A stretch of 64,000 bases of DNA, taken from assembly GCA_951406725.2 (NCBI GenBank), contig OX597814.1, positions 166,284,001-166,348,000 of the forward strand, given 5' to 3'. The notes under the pieces were generated by a model, which ran no database searches, was not told where the DNA came from, and saw only the letters and a program-made list of their open reading frames with translations. The position numbers were made by a program, and so were the translations under genes. Positions 13,480 to 53,789 of the stretch are shown one piece after another. Positions within the stretch are counted from its first letter, which is position 1, and each line of letters begins with the position of its first letter. The stretch is from Octopus vulgaris (lineage: Eukaryota).

Positions 13480-14772
13480 CGAGGGGCGTTCAATAAGTAA
13501 TGCCCCTGACCCACTTCCCATAGCAGTAGAGCAACGAAACTTGGCACAGTTATTAGTCTTTTTCTACATAGGAACCACCCAGAGTTACGCATTTCTCCCA
13601 TCGTTTGATGCAGCTCTGGAGACCGTTTTTGTAGAAGACCCCAGCTTGGTCCTCCAACCACGACGTGACTTCAGAAATCAAGGCTGCATCATCTGGGAAA
13701 CGCTTTCCTTTCAAAAACAACTTCATGGCTGGGAAGAGGTGAAAATCAGAGGGTGCAAGGTCAGGAGAGTAGAAGGGATGGGGGAGGAGTTCATAGCCGC
13801 ACGCCTGTGCTTCTGATCTGGCGACACGCAAGTTGTGGACCGGAGCGTTGTCCTGCAAGAGGAGGATGCCTTTGCTGATCTTGCCCCGCCTCTTGATTTT
13901 AATAGCTTCTCTTAATTTCATCAAAAGTGAAGCATAATAGGCTCCTGTAATTGTGGTACCCTTTGCCAGGAAATCTGTCATCACTACTCCGTCCTGGTCC
14001 CAGAAGACTGTGAGCATGACCTTGCCAGCGGAGGGTTGCACCCTTGCCTTCTTTGGAGGAGGTGAGTCACAGTGCTTCCACTGCATTGACTGGGCTTTGG
14101 TCTCTGGATCATAGTGATGGACCCAGGTTTCATCCTGTGTAATCAGTCTTTTGAAAAATTTTGACTCATCTTCTTGGTACATCTCCAAATTCATCCTCGA
14201 GCACTCGACGCGTTCTTGCTTCTGGAAAGGTGTGAGCAACCTGGGAATCCATCTGACAGACACCTTTTGCATATGCAAATGGTCATAAATGATAGTTTCC
14301 ACAGACCCGGTACTAATCTTGACCTCATGGGCTATTTGGCGAATAGTTATGCATCGATCTTCCAAAATGGCAGCCTCAACTTGACGGATAGATGCCTCAT
14401 CAATGGCAAAAGGGGGATGACCAGATCTGGGAGCTGTTTCCACAGAGTTCCGACCATGTTTGAATTCACGATGCCAGCGTTTTACAAGGTCATATGATGG
14501 GGCATCATCACCATAAGTTACTTTCATTTCATCAAAAGTCTCCCGTGGTGTGCGTCCTTTCAAATACAAAAACCGGATCACTGCTCGACACTCAACAGGC
14601 TCCATTTCACACTTGACTCAGTTCAAACACCTGTAAATCAGAAACCACAATTAGTTCAGAGCTGTCATTTTCCACTTAATCTATAGAGATATAAATAATT
14701 GCACATGCAAACTTTCAGCTAGATCAAACAACTGCAAGTGGGTCAGAGGCATTACTTATTGAACGCCCCTTG
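13480..14772 (-). mobile_element. Full-length mariner transposon (1293 bp)
   Basis: 37-bp TIRs (cgaggggcgttcaataagtaatgcccctgacccactt; 2 mismatches between ends); TA duplications at 13478-79 and 14773-74. Confidence 0.95.
13553..14605 (-). CDS. Mariner DD34D transposase, intact 350-aa ORF (resembles the irritans/Himar1 group)
   Basis: Motifs WIPRLL, ITQDETW, SAGKVMLTVFWD, LLQDNAP and HPFYSPDLAPSD; 34 residues between the second and third Asp. Confidence 0.93.
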   Translation of the reverse strand: MEPVECRAVIRFLYLKGRTPRETFDEMKVTYGDDAPSYDLVKRWHREFKHGRNSVETAPRSGHPPFAIDEASIRQVEAAILEDRCITIRQIAHEVKISTGSVETIIYDHLHMQKVSVRWIPRLLTPFQKQERVECSRMNLEMYQEDESKFFKRLITQDETWVHHYDPETKAQSMQWKHCDSPPPKKARVQPSAGKVMLTVFWDQDGVVMTDFLAKGTTITGAYYASLLMKLREAIKIKRRGKISKGILLLQDNAPVHNLRVARSEAQACGYELLPHPFYSPDLAPSDFHLFPAMKLFLKGKRFPDDAALISEVTSWLEDQAGVFYKNGLQSCIKRWEKCVTLGGSYVEKD

Positions 14773-32183: not shown

Positions 32184-32368
32184 AGTATATGAAAGAATGG
32201 AGTTGAACGACTAGTTAACAAATATCCTTTATTCTCGACATATTTATGTAGAAGAGGTTTGCTCGAAACGGAAAATCCTCTTTCTTTCCTTTCCTGAGTG
32301 TCTGATAATGCAGTATTTGTACCATGTCCTCGCGTTGTTGTTTTTGCTTGCTTGTTCTTTGTTTGGAT

Positions 32369-32447
<79 letters not shown>

Positions 32448-32461
32448 CATACATACATACA

Positions 32462-32497
<36 letters not shown>

Positions 32498-32701
32498 CAT
32501 AATTGAATGAATTATCTTATTAAGGATTATTCGAAAGATAACCGATACCTGGGTAGCAAATTCACATCAGAAAGAACACGGTTGAAGCTACGTCCCTAGG
32601 GCATAGACTACGTGTCTTCGTGCGGAAATTTGTAGGTTTATTTTAAAATTATAAGTATATGAAAGAATGGAGTTGAACGACTAGTTCACAAATATCCTTT
32701 A

Positions 32702-32784
32702 TTCTCGACATATGTTTCGAAGGCTGCATATTCCTAATTCCAAAGGAATAAGGAGTACATTATGCAGATTTCTCATCAGGAAAA
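32702..32784 (-). ncRNA. Type I hammerhead ribozyme (mirror of 32940-33022)
   Basis: Reverse complement of the plus-strand motif with all core nucleotides intact. Confidence 0.8.
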
Positions 32785-32939
32785 TCAAGGAACTTAATTA
32801 GACATCAAAATGCACAAAAAACTTTTAGCTGACCGCTCTCAAGGAGCCCATGGCGATAGACTCATTATCGGCATGGGCTCCTTGAGAGTGGTCAGCTAAA
32901 AGTTTTTTGTGCATTTTGATGTCGACATAAGTTCCTTGA

Positions 32940-33022
32940 TTTTCCTGATGAGAAATCTGCATAATGTACTCCTTATTCCTTCGGAATTAGGAATATGCAG
33001 CCTTCGAAACATATGTCGAGAA
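32940..33022 (+). ncRNA. Type I hammerhead ribozyme
   Basis: Stem I ttttc/gagaa; core CTGATGA 32945-51; long stem II (ctgcata/tatgcag with an inner hairpin); GAAAC 33006-10; palindromic stem III ACATATGT; cleavage triplet GTC 33015-17. Confidence 0.8.
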
Positions 33023-33226
33023 TAAAGGATATTTGTGAACTAGTCGTTCAACTCCATTCTTTCATATACTTATAATTTTAAAATAAACCTACAAATTTCC
33101 GCACGAAGACACGTAGTCTATGCCCTAGGGACGTAGCTTCAACCGTGTTCTTTCTGATGTGAATTTGCTACCCAGGTATCGGTTATCTTTCGAATTATCC
33201 TTAATAAGATAATTCATTCAATTATG

Positions 33227-33262
<36 letters not shown>

Positions 33263-33308
33263 TGTATGTATGTATGTATGTATGTATGTATGTATGTATG
33301 TATGTATG

Positions 33309-33380
<72 letters not shown>

Positions 33381-33582
33381 ATCCAAACAAAGAACAAGCA
33401 AGCAAAAACAACAACGCGAGGACATGGTACAAATACTGCATTATCAGACACTCAGGAAAGGAAAGAAAGAGGATTTTCCGTTTCGAGCAAACCTCTTCTA
33501 CAGAAATAGAGCAAAGTCCAAAAGAAGGGAAGACGGAGGAAGAAAATCGTCAACGATATGCACGTGGTTACATCTTGAAATA

Positions 33583-33640
<58 letters not shown>

Positions 33641-33790
33641 AACAGGTTGCTTGACCGCATACCGAAAAAATAGAAATAGCAGTCAAGAATGCTTATTTCT
33701 ATCAAAGTTGGACTCCGGGCATGACAGACCCTGTAATTCACATATGCAAAACAGAAGGAATAGATAACGAATACGAAGTCTGGCGGTTAT

Positions 33791-33901
33791 CTGTGAACAT
33801 CATGTTTCTGGATTATAAACATATTGAATATATATTCCATATATTTTTAGTATATATTTCATATATATTGCATATATATTTCACATCCTTCTTCAGCACA
33901 G
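33791..33901 (-). ncRNA. Type I hammerhead ribozyme (inverted copy)
   Basis: Reverse complement of 34073-34183. Confidence 0.7.
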
Positions 33902-34072
33902 CTTTCCATTGAAAAAGATTTATCATAGATTTATGGGAAGATTTATGAATTCAAACGTCTATGTAGGTTTAGCCTTTGCTCACTTTCTTCAAATATTTTG
34001 ATGTCGCATGGTCAGAAGGTTTGAGGTACGTAGCATTTGATAAATCTATGATAAATCTTTTTCAATGGAAAG

Positions 34073-34183
34073 CTGTGCTGAAGAAGGATGTGAAATATAT
34101 ATGCAATATATATGAAATATATACCAAAAATATATGGAATATATATTCAATATGTTTATAATCCAGAAACATGATGTTCACAG
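34073..34183 (+). ncRNA. Type I hammerhead ribozyme with a long AT-rich stem II
   Basis: Stem I ctgtg/cacag; CTGAAGA 34078-84; stem II base ggat/atcc enclosing ~70 nt; GAAAC 34166-70; stem III aca-tga-tgt; triplet GTT 34176-78. Confidence 0.7.
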
Positions 34184-34714
34184 ATAACCGCCAAACTTCG
34201 TATTCGTTATCTATTCCTTCTGTTTTGCATATGTGAATTACAGGGTCTGTCATGCCCGGAGTCCAACTTTGATAGAAATAAGCATTCTTGACTGCTATTT
34301 CTATTTTTTCGGTATGCGGTCAAGCAACCTGTTTTGCCTGTCCCTTTTTCTTATACACAATATATATACTGAACTTTACAGAAGTTCCTGCCGGTAATCG
34401 GCTATATTTACATACCGAATTCTACCAGTAAATAATTGAGGTTTTTTTAAAAGCCTTTATAGAAATTATTTACTCTTATCATTATATTACTATTTGGATT
34501 TTTCACTCCATTTGACAACCTAATTGTTCCCCATCTTACGGAACTATTTTTGTAATGCGCATGGCAAAATTTTGGAGGGAAGATTTATGAATTCAAACGT
34601 CTATGTAGGTTTAGCCTTTGCTCACTTTCTTCAAATATTTTGATGTCGCATGGTCAGAAGGTTTGAGGTACGTAGCATTTGATAAATCTATGATAAATCT
34701 TTTTCAATGGAAAG

Positions 34715-34825
34715 CTGTGCTGAAGAAGGATGTGAAATATATATGCAATATATATGAAATATATACCAAAAATATATGGAATATATATTCAATATGTTTA
34801 TAATCCAGAAACATGATGTTCACAG
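34715..34825 (+). ncRNA. Type I hammerhead ribozyme, second tandem copy
   Basis: Same motif 642 bp downstream of 34073-34183. Confidence 0.7.
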
Positions 34826-35122
34826 ATAACCGCCAGACTTCGTATTCGTTATCTATTCCTTCTGTTTTGCATATGTGAATTACAGGGTCTGTCATGCCCG
34901 GAGTCCAACTTTGATAGAAATAAGCATTCTTGACTGCTATTTCTATTTTTTCGGTATGCGGTCAAGCAACCTGTTTTGCCTGTCCCTTTTTCTTATACAC
35001 AATATATATACTGAACTTTACAGAAGTTCCTGCCGGTAATCGGCTATATTTACATACCGAATTCTACCAGTAAATAATTGAGGTTTTTTTAAAAGCCTTT
35101 ATAGAAATTATTTACTCTTATC

Positions 35123-35196
<74 letters not shown>

Positions 35197-35197
<1 letters not shown>

Positions 35198-35518
35198 CAA
35201 GGAAAAATTGTAAAAATGCAGAATGCTAAATTGAAAGAAAATTTTAATGAAATGAGAAATTGATAAAATACATAAATATATATTTATTCAAACCGGTTTT
35301 CGTCATAATGTGACTTATCAAGAATAGTTAGGTAAATTTTTTTTAAAGTGAGAAAGGGGAAAAAAGAAAGTTGCATAACTTCCTTTAACTATTCTTGATA
35401 AGTCACATTATGACGAAAACCGGTTTGAATAAATATATATTTATATATTTTATCAATTTCTCATTTCATTAAATTTTCTTTCAATTTAGCATTCTGCATT
35501 TTTACAATTTTTCCTTGC
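35197..35518. repeat. Inverted repeat (~134-bp arms) between (TA)n tracts, with a hammerhead-like motif in each arm
   Basis: Arms 35197-35330 and 35386-35518. Plus-strand motif 35390-35431: tattc TTGATAA gtca-catta-tgac GAAA accggt tt gaata; mirror at 35285-35326. Confidence 0.75.
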
Positions 35519-35934
35519 TTATCATTTCTCCACGTGCGGTCAACACAACCCCACCATTTATTGATCTATATATATATATATATATATATATATGCTTACG
35601 AACAACATAGTTCCGGGTTCAGTCCCACTGCGTGGCACCTTTGGGCAAGTGTCTTCTACTATGGCCTCGGGCTGACCAAAGCCTTGTGAGTAGATTTGGT
35701 AGACGGAAACTGAAAGAAGCCCGTCGCATATATGCATATATATATATATGTTTGTGTGTCTGTGTTTGTCGCCCCCTAACATCGCCTGACAACCGATGTT
35801 GGTGTGCTTATGTCCCCGTAACTTAGGCGGTTCGGCAAAAGAGACCGATAGAATAAGTACTAGGCTTACAAAGAATAAGTCCTGGGGTCGATTTGCTCGA
35901 CTAAAGGAGGTGCTCCAGCATGGCCACAGTCACA

Positions 35935-36742
35935 TGGGGTACCAAAAACGTAACAAATATTTAGCCATGTATGGACATGATCCAAAAAGTTCAGTTCTTG
36001 AATTTAGACATGTAGCGGTATCTAAGCTGCTTTTCCAGATGAGCCATCTTTCCATATCACAAAGACCGCACTTTCCACGGCCGATGGTGTAAGGCTTTTA
36101 CTTGGCTAAGATCTTCCAGTGGATGTTGTAATTGATACCTTTATCTTTTAAGGACCATATATGACTGGATAATTTTGTCGTTTTCTTTTGTCCCAGTGCC
36201 TGAAGCTCAAGGTGTGATTGTTGAACCTGGCCTTAAAACTTCCCTCTGAAAGGTCCACATATTTCTTTGTCGAAACTGTGTTCTTAGTGGTTGTAGAGCC
36301 TACGGTGGCTTCATAAATGATGGTCTCGAACATGCAAGCTCCATTTAGCGGGAATAAATTTTTGTCCTTGCATGAACAGCTGGTTTCATTTTGTGGTTTT
36401 TGAACGTTGCGTGCGATTATATATTTTAAAATTAGTAGTTGAGCTGAAGCTGATTTTTAAGTTATGTCTATTGAGGAGCTTTCTGTAAGTATGATTGACT
36501 GGAAAATGTCTATCTATCAGTGCTAAGAAATACTTACCTACATTAAAGGTCACTTCGGGAAAGTAGAGGGGTGTGAACCAGATAGTTTTCCTATTCCTAT
36601 GTTTTCTTTTCTTTATTACTGGACTGGTGACAGGTGTATAGGTTATTTCCTCGCTAAATCCACTATCTTTTAGAGCATTATTTTATACTGGGGCAACGCA
36701 ATTAAAAATGTCCCTATCGGAGGAGAGGCTAGAAATTCTTTT
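35935..36742 (-). mobile_element. Degenerate Penelope-like element (RT thumb to GIY-YIG), a different family from the 45-kb copy
   Basis: Broken frames RISSLSSDRDIFN..ALKDSGF, RKTIWFTPLY..NVGKYFLALIDRHFP, CSCKDKNLFPLNGAC..IIYEATV..YVDLSEGSFKARFNNH. Confidence 0.75.
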
Positions 36743-38775: not shown

Positions 38776-38951
38776 ATAAATATTAGGGAATAAATCCAAA
38801 ATTACAGGGAAAAAAATCAGATTTAGGATTAAATCCAATTTTATAGTAAAATATTATAAAATATTATTAGAGACAAAACCACTATTTTGCAAAACAAACA
38901 AGGAAAGACTTAATCAATACATAAAATTTTAATAAATAGTCAAAAAAACCG

Positions 38952-38994
38952 CCACTACAATCGTTTCTTGTCTTGATCGACAATCTTCAGGTGG
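38952..38994 (-). ncRNA. Minimal type I hammerhead ribozyme, left terminus
   Basis: Reverse complement of 53598-53640. Confidence 0.8.
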
Positions 38995-39590
38995 ACTTCA
39001 ATCTAAAATATCAATATTTTAAAATATACAAATAATAATTTTAAAATAATTAAAGTATGAATGAAAAAATATAAATATATAATCCATATATAACCTATAT
39101 ATAATCCATATATAATCAATATATAAACAATATATAAACTAAAATAAACCTATCAACAATTAAATATAAAATATAAAATATAAAATATAAAATATAAAAC
39201 AAAACAAAAAAATAATAATAATATAATAATAAACTATATATACACCCATACACATATACCTAATTATATATAACCATATCTAACTACATACACTAAACCA
39301 CACACCTATATATATATCCCTATACATACACATAAAAACGTCTAGGCAACTATAAATAAATAAAATAGCTAAATACTTCAACACAATACTTATTCATACT
39401 CCCACACACACACACATACAACCCACATTCACGCTCTAGAAAACGGACATCACTCAAAATTATGAACGGAGAAATGGAATAAATGGAATTAAAAATTATA
39501 TTCACTTGGTAAAACGAACACTACTTAAAAATTATGAATGAAACAATGCAATAAAACAACAGACATCGCAAATATACACAAATTACTACG

Positions 39591-42500
39591 AATTCCTTAA
39601 CAAACCTACCATGATAAACCAAAACTCACAAAAACATATAATGATAAAATCTCCCTTTACTAAACTCTATAACATACCTATATAGCAATCCCCCTAACCT
39701 AAACATTCACACACAAATACACACACGTAAACCACACACCCACGACATATACAAATACCCACACCACTTACACATACCAATACATACATATAAACCTCAA
39801 CATATACTCCAAAAACCCACTCAACCCCACACAGACAAATAAACACAAAAATTATGAATGGATTCTTTTATAAAACTACCATGATAAGCTAAAACTCACA
39901 AAACAGAAATGATAAAACCTCCCTTTACTAAACACTATAACATACTTATATAGCAATCCCTTTAACCTATACATTCACACACAAAAACACACATGTAAAC
40001 CACACACCCATAACAAATACAAACACCCACCCCACTCACACACACCCACAAGTACATATAAGCCTCAACATATACACGAACAAAATTACTTTACCAAGGA
40101 ACTTAACATATGTATAAAAAGTATAACCGCTCTGGAAACGAACATCTCTAAATTAATGAATGGAGAAATGGAATAAATGGAATTAAAAATAATATTCACG
40201 TGGCAAAACGAACACCACTCAAAAATTATGAATTAAACAATGCAATAAAACAACCAACATCGAAAATAGACAAATTACCACGAATTCCCTAAAAAAACCC
40301 ATGATAAACCAAAACTCTTAAAAACATATAACGATAAAATCTCCCTTTGCTAAACTCTATAACAAACCTATATAGCAATCCCCCTAACCTAAACATTCAC
40401 ACACAAATACACACACGTAAACCACAGACCCACGACTTATACACATACCTATACTAACTTATAAACCTCAATATACACCAAAATCCACTCCCTCCACACA
40501 CAGACAAATTAACACATACATCCCAAAACCTAAATAACAAACCCATATACACATTCACACACAAACACACACACACGCAAAACACACACACACAACAGAT
40601 ACATATACTCCCTCACATATACGCATATACATACTCACTAAACTCGATATATACAACAATATTTACACACCCACACTCATACAGATAAATAAATTATACA
40701 ACTAAAAACTCACACACAATCTCATATACATAAACACTCCTATGAAAACAACATTAAATACATCGTAATTAACCAGAATATCAAAAATAACAATATGACA
40801 TAAGGATAAATAAAATACATACTTACAAGTCAGTTTCAAATTATAAAGTGAAATTAAATTCTTAGCCGTTAAAAAAATCAAACCAAAATTACGTTACCAT
40901 AGAAATAACTTATGTAAAAAAAGAATACGCGTCATGGAAAGTAAACGTCATTTAAAATTATGAATGGAGAAAAAGAATAAATGGAACTAAAAACTATATC
41001 CACGTGGCAAACCAACACTACTTAAAAAAATTTATTATGAATGGATTCTTTAAAAAACTACCATGAAAAATCATTATATACATTTATGAGCTTTAGCTCA
41101 CCTTAGCAGCTCTAACAAACAACTTGCAGCAACCCAAACCTATTCTCGATGCCTACCTCACTACTACACTATTCCACTCACAATTCCAAGCAACGCTAGT
41201 CCACCACCCGGTTACAATTCCCAACTCCACCCATTCATTCACAATTTCAACGACGTTCGCCTCCACAGCGCTACATATAAGCCTCAACATATACACCGGA
41301 GATTCACATCCGTGCGAATGGGTGAGAGTAATTCCTTAACAAACCTACCAAGATAAACCAAAACTCACAAAACATATAATGATAAAATCTCCCTTTACTA
41401 AACTCTATAACATACCTATATAGCAATCCCCCTAACCTAAACATTCACACACAAATACACACACGTAAACCACACACCCACGACATATACAGATACCCAC
41501 ACCACTTACACATACCAATACATACATATAAACCTCAACATATACTCCAAAACCCACTCAACCCCACACATACAAATAAACACAAAAATTATGAATGGAT
41601 TCTTTTATAAAACTACCATGATAAGCTAAAACTCACAAAACAGAAATAATAAAACCTCCCTTACTAAACACTATAACATACTTATATAGCAATCCCTTTA
41701 ACCTATACATTCACACACAAAAAAAACACACTCGTAAACCACACACCCATAACAAATACAAACACCCACCCCACTCACACACACCCACAAGTACATATAA
41801 GCCTCAACATATACACGAACAAAATTACTTTACCAAGGAACTTAACATATGTATAAAAAGTATAACCGCTCTGGAAACGAACATCTCTAAATTAATGAAT
41901 GGAGAAATGGAATAAATGGAATTAAAAATAATATTCACGTGGCAAAACGAACACCACTCAAAAATTATGAATTAAACAATGCAATAAAACAACCAACATC
42001 GAAAATAGACAAATTACCACGAATTCCCTAAAAAAACCCATGATAAACCAAAACTCTTAAAAACATATAACGATAAAATCTCCCTTTGCTAAACTCTATA
42101 ACAAACCTATATAGCAATCCCCCTAACCTAAACATTCACACACAAATACACACACGTAAACCACAGACCCACGACTTATACACATACCTATACTAACTTA
42201 TAAACCTCAATATACACCAAAATCCACTCCCTCCACACACAGACAAATTAACACATACATCCCAAAACCTAAATAACAAACCCATATACACATTCACACA
42301 CAAACACACACACACGCAAAACACACACACACAACAGATACATATACTCCCTCACATATACGCATATACATACTCACTAAACTCGATATATACAACAATA
42401 TTTACACACCCACACTCATACAGATAAATAAATTATACAACTAAAAACTCACACACAATCTCATATACATAAACACTCCTATGAAAACAACATTAAATAC

Positions 42501-44812
42501 ATCGTAATTAACCAGAATATCAAAAATAACAATATGACATAAGGATAAATAAAATACATACTTACAAGTCAGTTTCAAATTATAAAGTGAAATTAAATTC
42601 TTAGCCGTTAAAAAAATCAAACCAAAATTACGTTACCATAGAAATAACTTATGTAAAAAAAGAATACGCGTCATGGAAAGTAAACGTCATTTAAAATTAT
42701 GAATGGAGAAAAAGAATAAATGGAACTAAAAACTATATCCACGTGGCAAACCAACACTACTTAAAAAAATTTATTATGAATGGATTCTTTAAAAAACTAC
42801 CATGAAAAATCATTATATACATTTATGAGCTTTAGCTCACCTTAGCAGCTCTAACAAACAACTTGCAGCAACCCAAACCTATTCTCGATGCCTACCTCAC
42901 TACTACACTATTCCACTCACAATTCCAAGCAACGCTAGTCCACCACCCGGTTACAATTCCCAACTCCACCCATTCATTCACAATTTCAACGACGTTCGCC
43001 TCCACAGCGCTACATATAAGCCTCAACATATACACCGGAGATTCACATCCGTGCGAATGGGTGAGAGTAATTCCTTAACAAACCTACCAAGATAAACCAA
43101 AACTCACAAAACATATAATGATAAAATCTCCCTTTACTAAACTCTATAACATACCTATATAGCAATCCCCCTAACCTAAACATTCACACACAAATACACA
43201 CACGTAAACCACACACCCACGACATATACAGATACCCACACCACTTACACATACCAATACATACATATAAACCTCAACATATACTCCAAAACCCACTCAA
43301 CCCCACACATACAAATAAACACAAAAATTATGAATGGATTCTTTTATAAAACTACCATGATAAGCTAAAACTCACAAAACAGAAATAATAAAACCTCCCT
43401 TACTAAACACTATAACATACTTATATAGCAATCCCTTTAACCTATACATTCACACACAAAAAAAACACACTCGTAAACCACACACCCATAACAAATACAA
43501 ACACCCACCCCACTCACACACACCCACAAGTACAAATAAGCCTCAACATATACACCAAACAAAATTACTTTACCAAGGAACTTAACATATGTATAAAAAA
43601 TATAACCGCTCTGGAAACGAACATCTCTAAATTAATGAATGGAGAAATGGAATAAATGGAATTAAAAATAATATTCACGTGGCAAAACGAACACCACTCA
43701 AAAATTATGAATGAAACAATGTAATAAAACAACCAACATCTAAAATAGACAAATTACCACGAATTCCCTAAAAAAACCATGATAAACCAAATCTCTTAAA
43801 ACCTATAACGATAAAATCTCCCTTTGCTAAACTCTATAACAAACCTATATAGCAATCCCCCTAACCTAAACATTCACACACAAATACACACACTTAAACC
43901 ACAGACCCACGACTTATACACATACCTATACTAACTTATAAACCTCAATATACACCAAAACCCACTCCCTCACCACACAGACAAATTAACACATACATCC
44001 CAAAACCTAAATAACAAACCCATATACACATTCACACACAAACACACACACACGCAAAACACACACACACAACAGATACATATACTCCCTCACATATACG
44101 CATATACATACTCACTAAACTCGATATATACAACAATATTTACACACCCACACTCATACAGATAAATAAATTATACAACTAAAAACTCACACACAATCTC
44201 ATATACATAAACACTCCTATGAAAACAACATTAAATACATCGTAATTAACCAGAATATCAAAAATAACAATATGACATAAGGATAAATAAAAAACATACT
44301 TACAAGTCAGTTTCAAATTATGAAGTGAAATTAAATTCTTAGCCGTTAAAAAAAACCAAACCAAAATTACGTTACCATAGAAATAACTTATGTAAAAAAA
44401 GAATACGCGCCATAGAAAGTAAACGTCATTTAAAATTATGAATGGAGAAAAAGAATAAATGGAACTAAAAACTACATCCACGTGGCAAACCAACACTACT
44501 TAAAAAAATTTATTATGAATGGATTCTTTAAAAAAACTACCATGAAAAATCATTATATACATTTATGAGCTTTAGCTCACCTTAGCAGCTCTAACAAACA
44601 ACTTGCAGCAACCCAACCCATACTCGATGCCTACCTCACTACTACACTATTCCACTCACAATTCCAAGCAACGCTAGTCCACCACCCGGTTACAATTCCC
44701 AACTCCACCCATTCATTCACAATTTCAACGACGTTCGCCTCCACAGCGCTACATATAAGCCTCAACATATACACCGGAGATTCACTTTCACATCCGTGCG
44801 GATGGGTGAGAG
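39591..44812. repeat. Three ~1739-bp tandem units of C/A-rich sequence with internal ~0.3-0.4-kb subrepeats (two mirrored units at ~49519-53000)
   Basis: Unit starts aattccttaacaaacctacc at 39591, 41330 and 43069; identical ORFs at 41124 and 42863. Confidence 0.9.
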
Positions 44813-45309
44813 TATACATTGAGTGTAGTGATAGGGCTCTCATTACTATACACATTTGTACCTGTGTGGTAGTCTCCATGTGTATATTCACGCACGGGTA
44901 TAAATACAGGGGGTACACGCGCACGTCATTAGAGTGTACCCCCTCACATGTACATATGCATGCTATTTGGGCTCGATATATGCAACAATGTAATCGCGCC
45001 CGCATACATGCATATGGGCGAGTTGCACAATCAAAAAACGCACACATGTGTGTGTGCGTTCCCTGGTTGTGCAATTCACCCATCTTGGTGTGAGTGGGTG
45101 TAAACGTATCTCTGTGGATGTCAAGCTTGATACGTATGTATATGAGTGTGTATTGGGGGGTTGTACGTATTTATTGTATGCATGTGCTTCACGCACGTGC
45201 GTCCATGTATGGATGAATATATTGGGATTGCTATGTGGGTGTAAATTGGGTATGGAGTGGGGAGTTTTGTCATTGTATGGGTGTAGGTTTCATATGTGAT
45301 GGTGGTTAG

Positions 45310-47648
45310 TTGGTAATTTTTGGTATGTTCTGTATATTTGGGTTAGTTATGTATTATTCTAGTAAAGAATTACAATTACTTGAAGATAGTATATGGAAGG
45401 TGGTAAAAAATATTGAATTCCATAAATACCCTAATAGAAATAATGAATATTTAAGGAATTTAGCAATTAAAATTAAAGATATGAGAAATATGGATGGTAT
45501 TATAGTACAATCTGATAAAACAAGGAACTTATATAAATTAGATGTTAAATTATATGATAAACTATTAGGGAAAGAAATAATTAAAAAATATAAAATTGTT
45601 CCAGATGATATTCTTTATAATATTAATAAGGCCTCTAAAGTAGTAATGTTAAAATATGAGTTGGATAATAAAACTGAACCTTATGTACCTTTGCACCCCA
45701 GAATTACTCTTAAAGACCATAAAGATAATTTTTATTCAGACCCTAAAGTTAGATTAATTTGCCCATGTAAATCGGACCTAGGTAAATTAAGTAAATTTAT
45801 TTTAGATAAATATATTGATAAGTTAAATAAACTTAATTATTTAAAATTATGGTTTAGTAATAATAATACATTGAAATGGTTTAATAATATTAAAGATAAA
45901 AATCGTTATAAATTTATTCAAATAGATATAGATAATTATTATTCTTCTATTAATGAAATTGTGTTTAATAAAGCGCTTATTTTCGCAATGAATAAAGTGG
46001 GTATGTCACGGGAAGAAGTTAATGTAATTAAAATGGCTAGGAAATCGCTAATTAAATATAAAAATAAATTATGGGCTAGGAATGATACTAGAGATTGTTT
46101 TGATATACTTATGGGAGCACCAGATTCTGCACAGGCTACTGATTTAGTAGGTATTTTTCTTTTATCTGAACTCCAATTAGAAAATCTTAAGATAGAGGGT
46201 GGTTTATATAGAGACGATCTTCTACTAGTTACAAAGAATTGTACTAATAGGAATCTAGAAGTATATAAGAAAAAATTATATAGTTTCTTTAAAAGATATG
46301 GTTTAAGTATTACTATATATAAGGAGAATTATAATGTTAATTATTTAGATGTTAATTTTAATCTTATTACAGGTAAAACACAACCATATCATAAACTTAA
46401 TGAGAACCTTAGATATATAAATGTTAATAGTAATCACCCATTTTCTATTAAAAAATCGTTGATTAATAATATAAGTAAACGTATTTCATTACTCTCTTAT
46501 GATATAGAGATTTTTAATAAACATGCTAAATATTATAATGAGGCCCTTAGAGGGGCAGGTTATAATAGGAATATTAAATTTTATAATATTAGTGATAAAG
46601 ATTTAATTGTTAATTTTCGAGATACTTCTAATAATAATTATAATTTTGTTAGGTTTAGTGGTAAAAATAATAGATATTATAAAAAAAATAATAAAAATGA
46701 TAAAAATATAAATAAGAATAATAATAATAATAATAAATATAATAATAATAATATAAATAAGAATAATAAAAATAAAAATAAATTTAATAATTATTATAAT
46801 TATATTGATAAATTTAATAATATTAATAATTCCTTAAATGCTGTACATAGATATAATTCTGATAATAATTTTAATAAAATAAAGAATTATAAATATATTT
46901 ATAATAATGATAATAATAATAAGGTTAATAAGAATAAAATTTGGTTAATAGTTCCTTATGGAGATCAAGTAAAAACGAATATTATTAAAGAGATCTTAGA
47001 TGTTATAGAACTATTTATTAGAGATAATCGTAAATATAGAAACATTTTCTCTTTTAATAATTTTGGAGTTGGTTACTCTACCACTAATAATGTTGGTAAC
47101 ATTATTTCTTCATTTAATAAATATAAACTGAATAATTTTTATAAAAAAAGAAATTATTTGATAATAATATTAATAATGATAAGACTTATATTAATTGTAC
47201 ATGTAGAGATAAATCTAATTGTATATTAAACAATAATTGTGATATTAACGATGTAGTGTATAAATGTATAGTTAAATTACATGATAATAACTTTAAGAAT
47301 AATAATTACACAAAAGCGGTTTATATAGGTTCTACTTCCTCAAAAATAAAACTAAGAATCGCACAACATATGAATTCTTTTAAAAATAAAAACTTAATCA
47401 ACTCAACCGGACTTAGTAAGTACATTTGGAGTCTTAAATCACTAAATATTAATTATAGTTTAATTTGGGAAATAATTTGTAAAACTAAATCATATACTAT
47501 AGGAGCTAATTGTTGTTATTTATGCTCTAATGAGTTTAAAGAAATTTTATTTTATAAGTATGATAATTTACTTAATACTGGTGAAGAGCGCAAAATAAAA
47601 TGCAGACATAAGTTACTTTACCTATATAATAAGTTTCATGATAAATAG
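45310..47648 (+). CDS. Penelope-like RT plus C-terminal GIY-YIG endonuclease, split by one frameshift at ~47143-47149 (likely start ATG 45349)
   Basis: RT motifs SDKTRNLY, ITLKDHK..KVRLICPCKSDLGKLSK, FIQIDIDNYYSSI, MGAPDSAQ, GLYRDD, VNYLDVNF, YINVNSNHP. The -1 frame continues CTCRDKSNCILNNNC..VVYKC..VYIGST..RIAQH..CYLC..LLN..CRH. Confidence 0.9.
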
Positions 47649-48291
47649 CAATAATAGTTCCCTTTTAGGTTACTTTAGTTTAGTTTAAATTAGTTTAGAT
47701 AATATATTTTAGGTTATGTTGTCTAGGATTTATTTATAGTTAGTCTTTATTGATATTTCTTTGTTTTAATTAGTTCATTTTTAATGTATATTATTTTAAC
47801 AGTATATGGTATGTTAAAACTTTAATAATTTATATTAGATTTTTTATTTTCTTTCTTTATATATTTTTTTATTTTTTTATTTTTATTTTATTTTATTATG
47901 TATTTTTATAATGCATTTGCTATATGTATTTTGGAGGATATATTTATATGTTGATGGGTGTTATTTAGTGGTGTTTTTATTGAGTTTTGTATGTATGTGT
48001 GAATGTTTATGATCCCTTTGTTTTTTGTTTTTTTATTTGGTATGTTGAATGGCAGATTTTTGGGTATTGTCTGTTATAATAAAGTACACACACCCATAAC
48101 AAATATAAGTGCCCACTTCATTCGTTGTACCAGGAATTGCATGTGAGCCTCAACATATACACCTAACGGCCACTCCCGCCCCATATGGATAAATAAACAC
48201 ATACATCCCCAATAATGGGTAATCCCACTCACACAAATCATATGTATACAATTATACACACTAGAATAATACATAACTAACCCAAATATAC

Positions 48292-49021
48292 AGCCATTTT
48301 AATTACATTAACTTCTTCCCGTGACATACCCACTTTATTCATTGCGAAAATAAGCGCTTTATTAAACACAATTTCATTTAATAGAAGAATAATAATTATC
48401 TATATCTATTTGAATAAATTTATAACGATTTTTATCTTTAATATTATTAAACCATTTCAATGTATTATTATTACTAAACCATAATTTTAAATAATTAAGT
48501 TTATTTAACTTATCAATATATTTATCTAAAATAAATTTACTTAATTTACCTAGGTCCGATTTACATGGGCAAATTAATCTAACTTTAGGGTCTGAATAAA
48601 AATTATCTTTATGGTCTTTAAGAGTAATTCTGGGGTGCAAAGGTACATAAGGTTCAGTTTTATTATCCAACTCATATTTTAACATTACTACTTTAGAGGC
48701 CTTATTAATATTATAAAGAATATCATCTGGAACAATTTTATATTTTTTAATTATTTCTTTCCCTAATAGTTTATCATATAATTTAACATCTAATTTATAT
48801 AAGTTCCTTGTTTTATCAGATTGTACTATAATACCATCCATATTTCTCATATCTTTAATTTTAATTGCTAAATTCCTTAAATATTCATTATTTCTATTAG
48901 GGTATTTATGGAATTCAATATTTTTTACCACCTTCCATATACTATCTTCAAGTAATTGTAATTCTTTACTAGAATAATACATAACTAACCCAAATATACA
49001 GAACATACCAAAAATTACCAA
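48292..49021 (-). pseudogene. Inverted, truncated copy of the 5' part of the Penelope-like ORF
   Basis: Matches the N-terminus of the 45310 ORF until a 1-bp insertion near 48376; truncated at 48292. Confidence 0.85.
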
Positions 49022-52000
49022 CTAACCACCATCACATATGAAACCTACACCCATACAATGACAAAACTCCCCACTCCATACCCAATTTACACCCACATAG
49101 CAATCCCAATATATTCATCCATACATGGACGCACGTGCGTGAAGCACATGCATACAATAAATACGTACAACCCCCCAATACACACTCATATACATACGTA
49201 TCAAGCTTGACATCCACAGAGATACGTTTACACCCACTCACACCAAGATGGGTGAATTGCACAACCAGGGAACGCACACACACATGTGTGCGTTTTTTGA
49301 TTGTGCAACTCGCCCATATGCATGTATGCGGGCGCGATTACATTGTTGCATATATCGAGCCCAAATAGCATGCATATGTACATGTGAGGGGGTACACTCT
49401 AATGACGTGCGCGTGTACCCCCTGTATTTATACCCGTGCGTGAATATACACATGGAGACTACCACACAGGTACAAATGTGTATAGTAATGAGAGCCCTAT
49501 CACTACACTCAATGTATACTCTCACCCATCCGCACGGATGTGAAAGTGAATCTCCGGTGTATATGTTGAGGCTTATATGTAGCGCTGTGGAGGCGAACGT
49601 CGTTGAAATTGTGAATGAATGGGTGGAGTTGGGAATTGTAACCGGGTGGTGGACTAGCGTTGCTTGGAATTGTGAGTGGAATAGTGTAGTAGTGAGGTAG
49701 GCATCGAGTATGGGTTGGGTTGCTGCAAGTTGTTTGTTAGAGCTGCTAAGGTGAGCTAAAGCTCATAAATGTATATAATGATTTTTCATGGTAGTTTTTT
49801 TAAAGAATCCATTCATAATAAATTTTTTTAAGTAGTGTTGGTTTGCCACGTGGATGTAGTTTTTAGTTCCATTTATTCTTTTTCTCCATTCATAATTTTA
49901 AATGACGTTTACTTTCTATGGCGCGTATTCTTTTTTTACATAAGTTATTTCTATGGTAACGTAATTTTGGTTTGGTTTTTTTTAACGGCTAAGAATTTAA
50001 TTTCACTTCATAATTTGAAACTGACTTGTAAGTATGTTTTTTATTTATCCTTATGTCATATTGTTATTTTTGATATTCTGGTTAATTACGATGTATTTAA
50101 TGTTGTTTTCATAGGAGTGTTTATGTATATGAGATTGTGTGTGAGTTTTTAGTTGTATAATTTATTTATCTGTATGAGTGTGGGTGTGTAAATATTGTTG
50201 TATATATCGAGTTTAGTGAGTATGTATATGCGTATATGTGAGGGAGTATATGTATCTGTTGTGTGTGTGTGTTTTGCGTGTGTGTGTGTTTGTGTGTGAA
50301 TGTGTATATGGGTTTGTTATTTAGGTTTTGGGATGTATGTGTTAATTTGTCTGTGTGGTGAGGGAGTGGGTTTTGGTGTATATTGAGGTTTATAAGTTAG
50401 TATAGGTATGTGTATAAGTCGTGGGTCTGTGGTTTAAGTGTGTGTATTTGTGTGTGAATGTTTAGGTTAGGGGGATTGCTATATAGGTTTGTTATAGAGT
50501 TTAGCAAAGGGAGATTTTATCGTTATAGGTTTTAAGAGATTTGGTTTATCATGGTTTTTTTAGGGAATTCGTGGTAATTTGTCTATTTTAGATGTTGGTT
50601 GTTTTATTACATTGTTTCATTCATAATTTTTGAGTGGTGTTCGTTTTGCCACGTGAATATTATTTTTAATTCCATTTATTCCATTTCTCCATTCATTAAT
50701 TTAGAGATGTTCGTTTCCAGAGCGGTTATATTTTTTATACATATGTTAAGTTCCTTGGTAAAGTAATTTTGTTTGGTGTATATGTTGAGGCTTATTTGTA
50801 CTTGTGGGTGTGTGTGAGTGGGGTGGGTGTTTGTATTTGTTATGGGTGTGTGGTTTACGAGTGTGTTTTTTTTGTGTGTGAATGTATAGGTTAAAGGGAT
50901 TGCTATATAAGTATGTTATAGTGTTTAGTAAGGGAGGTTTTATTATTTCTGTTTTGTGAGTTTTAGCTTATCATGGTAGTTTTATAAAAGAATCCATTCA
51001 TAATTTTTGTGTTTATTTGTATGTGTGGGGTTGAGTGGGTTTTGGAGTATATGTTGAGGTTTATATGTATGTATTGGTATGTGTAAGTGGTGTGGGTATC
51101 TGTATATGTCGTGGGTGTGTGGTTTACGTGTGTGTATTTGTGTGTGAATGTTTAGGTTAGGGGGATTGCTATATAGGTATGTTATAGAGTTTAGTAAAGG
51201 GAGATTTTATCATTATATGTTTTGTGAGTTTTGGTTTATCTTGGTAGGTTTGTTAAGGAATTACTCTCACCCATTCGCACGGATGTGAATCTCCGGTGTA
51301 TATGTTGAGGCTTATATGTAGCGCTGTGGAGGCGAACGTCGTTGAAATTGTGAATGAATGGGTGGAGTTGGGAATTGTAACCGGGTGGTGGACTAGCGTT
51401 GCTTGGAATTGTGAGTGGAATAGTGTAGTAGTGAGGTAGGCATCGAGAATAGGTTTGGGTTGCTGCAAGTTGTTTGTTAGAGCTGCTAAGGTGAGCTAAA
51501 GCTCATAAATGTATATAATGATTTTTCATGGTAGTTTTTTAAAGAATCCATTCATAATAAATTTTTTTAAGTAGTGTTGGTTTGCCACGTGGATATAGTT
51601 TTTAGTTCCATTTATTCTTTTTCTCCATTCATAATTTTAAATGACGTTTACTTTCCATGACGCGTATTCTTTTTTTACATAAGTTATTTCTATGGTAACG
51701 TAATTTTGGTTTGATTTTTTTAACGGCTAAGAATTTAATTTCACTTTATAATTTGAAACTGACTTGTAAGTATGTATTTTATTTATCCTTATGTCATATT
51801 GTTATTTTTGATATTCTGGTTAATTACGATGTATTTAATGTTGTTTTCATAGGAGTGTTTATGTATATGAGATTGTGTGTGAGTTTTTAGTTGTATAATT
51901 TATTTATCTGTATGAGTGTGGGTGTGTAAATATTGTTGTATATATCGAGTTTAGTGAGTATGTATATGCGTATATGTGAGGGAGTATATGTATCTGTTGT

Positions 52001-53597
52001 GTGTGTGTGTTTTGCGTGTGTGTGTGTTTGTGTGTGAATGTGTATATGGGTTTGTTATTTAGGTTTTGGGATGTATGTGTTAATTTGTCTGTGTGTGGAG
52101 GGAGTGGATTTTGGTGTATATTGAGGTTTATAAGTTAGTATAGGTATGTGTATAAGTCGTGGGTCTGTGGTTTACGTGTGTGTATTTGTGTGTGAATGTT
52201 TAGGTTAGGGGGATTGCTATATAGGTTTGTTATAGAGTTTAGCAAAGGGAGATTTTATCGTTATATGTTTTTAAGAGTTTTGGTTTATCATGGGTTTTTT
52301 TAGGGAATTCGTGGTAATTTGTCTATTTTCGATGTTGGTTGTTTTATTGCATTGTTTAATTCATAATTTTTGAGTGGTGTTCGTTTTGCCACGTGAATAT
52401 TATTTTTAATTCCATTTATTCCATTTCTCCATTCATTAATTTAGAGATGTTCGTTTCCAGAGCGGTTATACTTTTTATACATATGTTAAGTTCCTTGGTA
52501 AAGTAATTTTGTTCGTGTATATGTTGAGGCTTATATGTACTTGTGGGTGTGTGTGAGTGGGGTGGGTGTTTGTATTTGTTATGGGTGTGTGGTTTACATG
52601 TGTGTTTTTGTGTGTGAATGTATAGGTTAAAGGGATTGCTATATAAGTATGTTATAGTGTTTAGTAAAGGGAGGTTTTATCATTTCTGTTTTGTGAGTTT
52701 TAGCTTATCATGGTAGTTTTATAAAAGAATCCATTCATAATTTTTGTGTTTATTTGTCTGTGTGGGGTTGAGTGGGTTTTTGGAGTATATGTTGAGGTTT
52801 ATATGTATGTATTGGTATGTGTAAGTGGTGTGGGTATTTGTATATGTCGTGGGTGTGTGGTTTACGTGTGTGTATTTGTGTGTGAATGTTTAGGTTAGGG
52901 GGATTGCTATATAGGTATGTTATAGAGTTTAGTAAAGGGAGATTTTATCATTATATGTTTTTGTGAGTTTTGGTTTATCATGGTAGGTTTGTTAAGGAAT
53001 TCGTAGTAATTTGTGTATATTTGCGATGTCTGTTGTTTTATTGCATTGTTTCATTCATAATTTTTAAGTAGTGTTCGTTTTACCAAGTGAATATAATTTT
53101 TAATTCCATTTATTCCATTTCTCCGTTCATAATTTTGAGTGATGTCCGTTTTCTAGAGCGTGAATGTGGGTTGTATGTGTGTGTGTGTGGGAGTATGAAT
53201 AAGTATTGTGTTGAAGTATTTAGCTATTTTATTTATTTATAGTTGCCTAGACGTTTTTATGTGTATGTATAGGGATATATATATAGGTGTGTGGTTTAGT
53301 GTATGTAGTTAGATATGGTTATATATAATTAGGTATATGTGTATGGGTGTATATATAGTTTATTATTATATTATTATTATTTTTTTGTTTTGTTTTATAT
53401 TTTATATTTTATATTTTATATTTTATATTTAATTGTTGATAGGTTTATTTTAGTTTATATATTGTTTATATATTGATTATATATGGATTATATATAGGTT
53501 ATATATGGATTATATATTTATATTTTTTCATTCATACTTTAATTATTTTAAAATTATTATTTGTATATTTTAAAATATTGATATTTTAGATTGAAGT

Positions 53598-53640
53598 CCA
53601 CCTGAAGATTGTCGATCAAGACAAGAAACGATTGTAGTGG
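53598..53640 (+). ncRNA. Minimal type I hammerhead ribozyme, right terminus
   Basis: CCAC CTGAAGA TTGTC-gatcaa-GACAA GAAAC gatt GTA GTGG: 4-bp stem I, 5-bp stem II, short near-palindromic stem III, GUA cleavage triplet, ~95 bp from (TA)n. Confidence 0.82.
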
Positions 53641-53727
53641 CGGTTTTTTTGACTATTTATTAAAATTTTATGTATTGATTAAGTCTTTCCTTGTTTGTTT
53701 TGCAAAATAGTGGTTTTGTCTCTAATA

Positions 53728-53789
<62 letters not shown>

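Follow-up and report, generated by a model that had tools for sequence, protein, structure and literature searches.

A young non-LTR retrozyme family of Octopus vulgaris with Penelope-type insertion anatomy and an A·A hammerhead variant

Non-LTR retrozymes and Penelope-like elements (PLEs) are the described systems closest to the locus considered here. As far as the available text of PMC8557442 goes, PLE insertions consist of partial tandem copies plus an inverted copy truncated at its 5' end and favor microsatellites, and the PLE repeats retain introns. According to the sections of PMC11167929 at hand, the purified protein of an anole PLE cleaves as well as extends both strands and has two internal priming sites; this PLE can do without ribozyme cleavage, and in vitro its main template is uncut RNA. 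For the hammerheads of such elements, portions of PMC4209133 and PMC7229834 set out a double-hammerhead model that needs stem III pairs across two ribozymes, and the former also proposes that a circle is read repeatedly. Among predicted retrozyme dimers from Xenopus, one of nine cleaved in vitro according to the accessible part of bioRxiv 10.64898/2026.07.22.740005. At positions 10.1/11.1 of the hammerhead, U·U is the best-tolerated mismatch reported (PMC3088659), and U·U at this position is known from what is available of PMC3088659 and PMC7229834.

The locus lies in a 64,000-nt stretch of contig OX597814.1, referred to as the window, within the microsatellite-rich, 2.8-Gb genome of Octopus vulgaris. 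It is one copy of a young, dispersed, non-coding retrozyme family with hundreds of genomic copies. A first-pass annotation had classed it as a tandem non-LTR retrozyme, which its tandem type I hammerhead units, non-coding character, and dispersed multicopy occurrence bear out; the family itself is new, and its kind, the non-LTR retrozyme as a non-autonomous PLE, is already known from the accessible part of bioRxiv 10.64898/2026.07.22.740005. With a probability of about 0.72, we read it as a young non-LTR retrozyme insertion with Penelope-type anatomy, made by a borrowed PLE reverse transcriptase-endonuclease that reread a probable unit-length RNA circle. We hold the identity of the element with high confidence and lean toward a circle as the template, while production of the 642-nt circle by this particular locus is doubtful. 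The features below are given by window position, and unit positions (q) are numbered from window position 33935.

33580 to 33638, no strand: (TA)n target microsatellite, left
33641 to 33934, minus strand: inverted arm, unit positions 106-399, 294 nt
33791 to 33901, minus strand: third complete hammerhead, in the inverted arm, predicted cut between 33796 and 33795
33935 to 34576, plus strand: full 642-nt unit, without ORF
33957 to 33967, plus strand: degenerate TATA-like box; a related family has TATATAAAT at the same place
34026 to 34243, plus strand: predicted retained intron around the ribozyme, from motifs (GAG/GTACGT ... pyrimidine tract TTACAG/G, slashes marking the splice boundaries)
34073 to 34183, plus strand: type I hammerhead 1, from motif and folding, predicted cut after 34178
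34091 to 34153, plus strand: TA-rich duplication with an 11-nt period, lengthening stem II
34272 to 34420, plus strand: 3' module common to related families, AGAAATA/TATTTCT hairpin, TTCGGTATG ... CATACCGAA
34350 to 34368, plus strand: preferred 3' end B of arms (unit 425-443)
34577 to 35129, plus strand: second, partial unit (1-553), stopping at preferred 3' end A
34715 to 34825, plus strand: type I hammerhead 2, identical to hammerhead 1, predicted cut after 34820
35125 to 35196, no strand: (TA)n target microsatellite, right

From left to right, the insertion runs from (TA)n through the inverted arm (33641-33934), the unit (33935-34576), and the partial unit (34577-35129) into (TA)n again, both outer ends passing into the microsatellite. 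Two head-to-tail units had been annotated; the tandem repeat is there, but 33935-34487 and 34577-35129 match at offset 642 (552 of 553 positions identical, the tandem copies differing at 1 of 553 sites) over 553 positions only, so the array comprises 1.86 units rather than two full ones. The inverted partial unit reported upstream was recovered as the arm 33641-33934, which matches unit positions 106-399 and whose outer end continues as CTTATATA, that is, start site B with a 16-nt slip. Comparable slips occur in other copies of the family, and with site A on the right and a slipped site B on the left the locus is typical of it. Stops are frequent in the 642-nt unit and no PLE domain is recognizable in its six-frame translation; an ORF remnant within the unit was considered and rejected, no frame being convincing.

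Other elements are found in the same window. A near-perfect palindrome at 32241-33508 holds two canonical-core hammerheads of another family, with G10.1-C11.1, a 54-nt domain II, and a CATATG stem III. At 35132-35593 and 35960-36740, a small inverted repeat with a U3-A8 hammerhead-like motif sits beside a minus-strand, frameshifted PLE endonuclease fragment interrupted by SINE-like repeats. The large PLE insertion at 38851-53742 has 4.2-kb inverted arms (99%), a 1739-nt tandem unit, a GIY-YIG ORF piece on the plus strand (47145-47645), and an RT piece on the minus strand (48377-49021); elsewhere there is a young family whose open frames measure about 840 aa. At 13556-14617 on the minus strand lies an open frame of 354 aa for a mariner-type transposase (Pfam Transposase_1 and HTH_48).

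Both plus-strand hammerheads have the same sequence, the second being the first displaced by 642, exactly the spacing that had been annotated, and the GUU position of the predicted cuts after 34178 and 34820 was confirmed in both copies. Class, spacing, and cut sites in the first-pass annotation therefore stand, while the third, minus-strand hammerhead (33901-33791), the A·A at 10.1/11.1, the dimer requirement, and the Penelope-type insertion footprint were absent from it. In hammerhead 1, stem I pairs 34073-77 with 34179-83 (5 bp, CUGUG), the core consists of CUGAAGA (34078-84), GAAA (34166-69), and GUU before the cut, domain II spans 81 nt (34085-34165), and stem III is the palindromic ACAUGAUGU. 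The canonical type I features, a CUGANGA, GAAA, and NUH core with three stems, are all present; the G10.1-C11.1 pair between A9 and G12 is absent, with A34085·A34165 in its place. Because of this A·A, a strict motif scan missed all three ribozymes. Rfam returned no hammerhead at the gathering score across the whole window or at E ≤ 10 in 32200-35600, its hits being microsatellite and hairpin noise only. The isolated 126-nt ribozyme folds into the structure described (-25.6 kcal/mol, z of -2.9, 0 of 200 shuffles as stable).

The unusually large stem II singled out by the annotation is indeed large and (TA)-rich, and comparison with the 38-nt domain II of a sister family makes it look like a tolerated local duplication. 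In the alignment, the long stem II equals the short one of the sister family plus two insertions of the TA-rich repeat. Shorter versions occur within the 642-nt family itself, no other part of the unit varies as much as the distal stem, and sequence comparison makes a neutral expansion of a local 11-nt duplication likely. Across families the length of domain II varies between 10 and 83 nt, an argument against any fixed tertiary contact between loops I and II.

A·A at 10.1/11.1 is the norm of the family, found in 46 of 56 distinct ribozyme-like strings from its loci; several of the other 10 match ribozymes of neighboring elements. The sister family, 70 to 78% identical along the unit and mostly with a 38-nt domain II, has A·A in 17 of 21 strings. 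It recurs (7 of 9) in a 560- to 562-nt family with a 30-nt domain II, which is homologous to the unit over about 350 nt (score of 91, shuffle maximum of 45) and contributes most of 244 pattern matches, and also in an old family with a 14-nt domain II and no other detected similarity to the unit. In a family of about 555 nt, which has a U3 core, the A preceding GAAA is retained but the 5' A is often missing. The A·A ribozyme also occurs in 29 of 30 copies of a young autonomous PLE with a 727-aa open frame, a 3.36-kb unit, and two fixed 3' ends at (TA)n (150 of 150 scored matches 98 to 100% identical); a pattern for its ribozyme form gave 4098 matches (none for the control), and that PLE accounts for 98 of the first 100 listed. 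The pair adjoining A·A varies across families (G-C, A-U, or C-G), stem I differs in sequence yet pairs, and every stem III is palindromic, in some cases with a central mismatch (ACAUGAUGU, ACGCGU, ACAGGCUGU, ACUCAGAGU). A·A is kept in four repeat families, related or look-alike, and in a young PLE that codes for protein, while neighboring pairs covary. The variant may be undescribed: the literature searched, including that on octopus, Penelope, and hammerhead, does not describe an A·A or extra-A form, and supplements and Lunse et al. (short-stem-III PLE hammerheads) may contain it. A natural A·A at a highly conserved position, in >4,000 genomic copies with unrelated flanks, would widen the hammerhead consensus, and such hammerheads may be missed by standard descriptors, as Rfam found nothing here.

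Many ribozyme pairs of the autonomous PLE (L284-L288; pairs on contig C1 of G000 such as 4679295-4679376; approximately 4000 ribozyme matches) stand back to back only 9 to 31 nt apart, often 24, so its 5' ends accumulate immediately upstream of the core, where a TTCTAG/C palindrome or an acceptor-like site lies.

Stem III of the 642-nt monomer has only 3 pairs, so cleavage would need a dimer, and the palindrome is predicted to favor cleavage as a double hammerhead. Folding of a two-unit RNA gives cross-ribozyme stem III pair probabilities of 0.76 to 0.98. Stem I is predicted to be unformed in context (P ≤ 0.01), the active double-hammerhead fold lies 5.3 kcal/mol above the predicted minimum, and in the predicted fold of a transcript that includes the inverted arm the second ribozyme would be buried. 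The circular monomer folds at -154.9 kcal/mol (z of -4.3 against 30 shuffles), partly owing to the TA hairpin.

A DNA search with the unit produced 197 matches from 40 of 1,210 candidates, the full-length ones 94 to 100% identical. As for the count of genomic copies proposed in the first-pass annotation, the 18-nt 3' half of the ribozyme has 463 exact matches in the genome and its reversed control 0, so the motif is not a product of chance. From 67 of the first 92 loci (the others overlapped the same places) we assembled 64 insertions in 247 pieces, a sample biased to long, well-matching copies and to contigs C1-C2. Unit variants of approximately 617, 642, and 644 nt occur in arrays of up to 13 units, the 642-nt unit spreads by itself with its own subfamilies, and whole-unit homologues of 555 to 584 nt exist. 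None of 32 lineage variants within the family falls in constrained sites (40 of 539 sites, P of about 0.085), and variant density is 1.0% at constrained sites, 1.6% elsewhere, and 2.6% in distal stem II, which is suggestive of selection on the ribozyme core. At one locus (L031, G000:C28:25292572-25299250), two insertions 3.3 kb apart have unit-level variants in common, suggesting gene conversion or local re-insertion.

Across the sample, two arms stand back to back, joined at their 5' ends, in 45 of 64 insertions, and (TA)5 is present at both ends in 50 of 64. The 3' ends of 111 arms fall mainly at q545-564 (site A, 54 arms) and q425-443 (site B, 25); 4 lie at q399-401, a slipped form of the latter, 11 at q350-381, and 17 elsewhere, for 83 of 111 ending at site A or B. 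Exactly one arm ends at site A in 41 of the 45 two-armed insertions, and two arms do so in none. The inverted 5'-truncated copy, partial tandem, (TA)n bias, and two preferred 3' ends of this footprint match PLE anatomy and the behavior of the anole protein, from which we strongly infer that a PLE enzyme mobilized and inserted the retrozyme. An ORF with RT and GIY-YIG was absent from family members in 41 loci scanned for ORFs. No autonomous partner with the 3' module came up when shared motifs and sister families were followed or in two protein searches for PLEs; the module is absent from both young autonomous PLE families examined, and the A·A-bearing autonomous PLE shows no similarity to the unit outside the ribozyme (score of 46, shuffle maximum of 54). 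The PLE proteins had no Pfam match above cut-off and are called RT and GIY-YIG proteins from their motifs.

The arms also bear on the template. Their inner ends are scattered, with 2 of 111 within 10 nt of the cut where 3.6 are expected (eight inner-end values at q1 are partly due to the splitting of pieces), and a pile-up of 5' ends at the cut site was rejected on this count. These scattered ends, and the 39 of 111 arms with two or more intact cut sites, show that cut linear monomers read once were not the template. Divergence is 0.58% between copies in the same arm and 0.60% between opposite arms of an insertion, and 1.97% between insertions. Among 46 multi-copy insertions, 16 have a private variant, meaning one in no other sampled insertion, in every overlapping copy, and in 7 of these 16 it is on both arms; 120 private variants are confined to single copies. 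At the locus itself, q190C is in all three copies; it is seen in 3 of 64 insertions. Homogeneity within insertions and shared private variants agree with one unit, in the simplest case a circle, having been read repeatedly; the private-variant pattern could also arise from gene conversion or from a homogeneous donor outside the sample. Long arrays were rejected as proof of a rolling circle: multi-unit variant blocks repeat in them (insertions 11 and 24), which means that later duplication accounts for at least part of their growth or that their templates were multimeric.

Upstream of the ribozyme, related families have in common the TATA-like box, which may act as a promoter, a short stretch, and a donor-like motif. 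The latter (GTACGT, GTAAGT, GTATGT) is conserved in three to four families, and an acceptor-like motif after the ribozyme is found in the 642-nt and sister families. Spliced copies had 0 matches in the genome, and a matching splice joint had 0 in four public runs, so the intron is a prediction. The related family of about 555 nt (L224-L253, L136-L157) has a clear TATATAAAT box, a GAG/GTAAGT donor-like site, and a U3/A8 ribozyme core. Downstream, the 3' motif common to the families has 1943 matches (control, 2), both preferred 3' ends lie beyond it, and the module would be a region recognized by the enzyme. A consensus fold of eight sequences supports the AGAAATA hairpin; with only 1 of 16 pairs compensated and a second helix split by the aligner, it does not demonstrate covariation.

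Public runs were compared over 34160-34715 in 4 of 24 runs, with no run labeled as RNA, 14 runs only guessed to be RNA, and contigs that carry no end, strand, or level information. Runs X1 and X5, from two studies and RNA only by guess, each yielded one contig wrapping the unit (613 and 651 nt), with 86 letters outside the compared span exactly at the expected place of the ribozyme; the two ends of the X5 contig overlap by 30 nt. Only fragments came from run X6, and 550 short pieces from the large run X15. The long X1 and X5 contigs carry haplotypes other than this locus and are compatible alike with a circle, a tandem transcript, or DNA. At 34260-34281, a low-depth X6 contig has five A>G changes in 22 nt, an editing-like cluster that is possibly another genomic copy.

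Under the reading that we prefer, RNA polymerase II would transcribe from the TATA-like box in every unit with the intron retained, and two ribozymes with a common 8-bp stem III would cleave slowly, probably assisted by protein. The cleaved unit would then be ligated into a 642-nt circle. A PLE reverse transcriptase-endonuclease would cut both target strands at (TA)n and prime at two internal TA-like sites (unit approximately 553 and 434); the circle would probably be read more than once, and two cDNAs would be joined at their 5' ends. A more elaborate proposal, which we think unlikely, is a PLE/retrozyme lineage with a dimer-only A·A hammerhead in a retained intron, such that only unspliced RNA gives the 642-nt circle and a PLE dimer copies it from both cut DNA ends at two fixed sites; splicing and self-cleavage would then compete in the 642-nt family.

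The same element and PLE enzyme could instead have used uncut multimeric read-through RNA, or seamless jumps between linear monomers, with a slow or vestigial ribozyme and no accumulating circle. The A·A mismatch, the unfavorable stem I, and the ordered variant blocks of long arrays all point this way, as do the eight of nine Xenopus dimers that did not cleave (accessible part of bioRxiv 10.64898/2026.07.22.740005) and the anole element, for which the available text of PMC11167929 gives uncut RNA as the main substrate and no RNA-seq reads starting or ending at the cut site. We nevertheless judge it quite improbable: private variants in all units and on both arms need one-unit rereading or strong gene conversion, and diverged families have retained the core, the pairing of stem I, and the palindrome of stem III.

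We regard it as very unlikely that an autonomous PLE left the unit behind as a terminal repeat (pLTR) or as a remnant of internal deletion, with the tandems as passive by-products or local satellites. A promoter, a retained intron, and a ribozyme, all predicted here, are among the traits of pLTRs in the portions at hand of PMC8557442 and PMC4209133, and an autonomous PLE has the same ribozyme variant, but in the 41 loci scanned none of the family copies runs on into a long PLE ORF, and neighboring elements account for the few PLE protein matches in fetched loci. The independent spread of the unit, with its own subfamilies, and its whole-unit homologues of 555 to 584 nt likewise speak against a remnant. 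Terminal inverted arms and TA targets would suit a DNA-level element (foldback, MITE-like, or rolling-circle DNA transposon) with an incidental hammerhead, yet the arms vary in length, inner junctions are scattered, and outer ends are fixed at two unit positions; this arm anatomy largely refutes such an origin, and the ribozyme stems also covary across families.

The favored retrozyme insertion by a PLE enzyme has counterparts on both sides. Like the metazoan non-LTR retrozymes covered by the available parts of PMC7229834 and bioRxiv 10.64898/2026.07.22.740005, the family has non-coding tandem units with one type I hammerhead each, dispersed copies, co-occurrence with PLEs, and a dimer-type stem III as in the axolotl. 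At 642 nt, the unit falls within the 51- to 972-nt range given in the preprint and exceeds the 170- to 400-nt invertebrate units given in PMC7229834; it has A·A at the base of helix II, where axolotl HHR_Amex2 has U·U, and an 81-nt domain II. The text at hand of these two sources does not describe a two-armed footprint for non-LTR retrozymes, and the 642-nt family is known from genome sequence, with the circle a prediction. With the EN+ PLEs of the Neptune/Hydra-like type (portions of PMC8557442 and PMC11167929), the family has in common partial tandems, an inverted 5'-truncated copy, (TA)n bias, two internal start sites, a hammerhead, and probably an intron in the repeat. In contrast to these PLEs, its unit has no ORF and its two 3' ends are approximately 119 nt apart rather than 30 to 40; each is situated at a TA-like spot, unlike in the anole element, which is described as priming without target homology. 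The PLE minimal hammerheads described in the accessible sections of PMC4209133 likewise have a short helix I, a long helix II, a palindromic helix III, a purine after A9, and low expected activity. Those hammerheads keep G10.1-C11.1, whereas every family examined here has an extra A before G12 and, across families, a first Watson-Crick pair that varies among G-C, A-U, and C-G.
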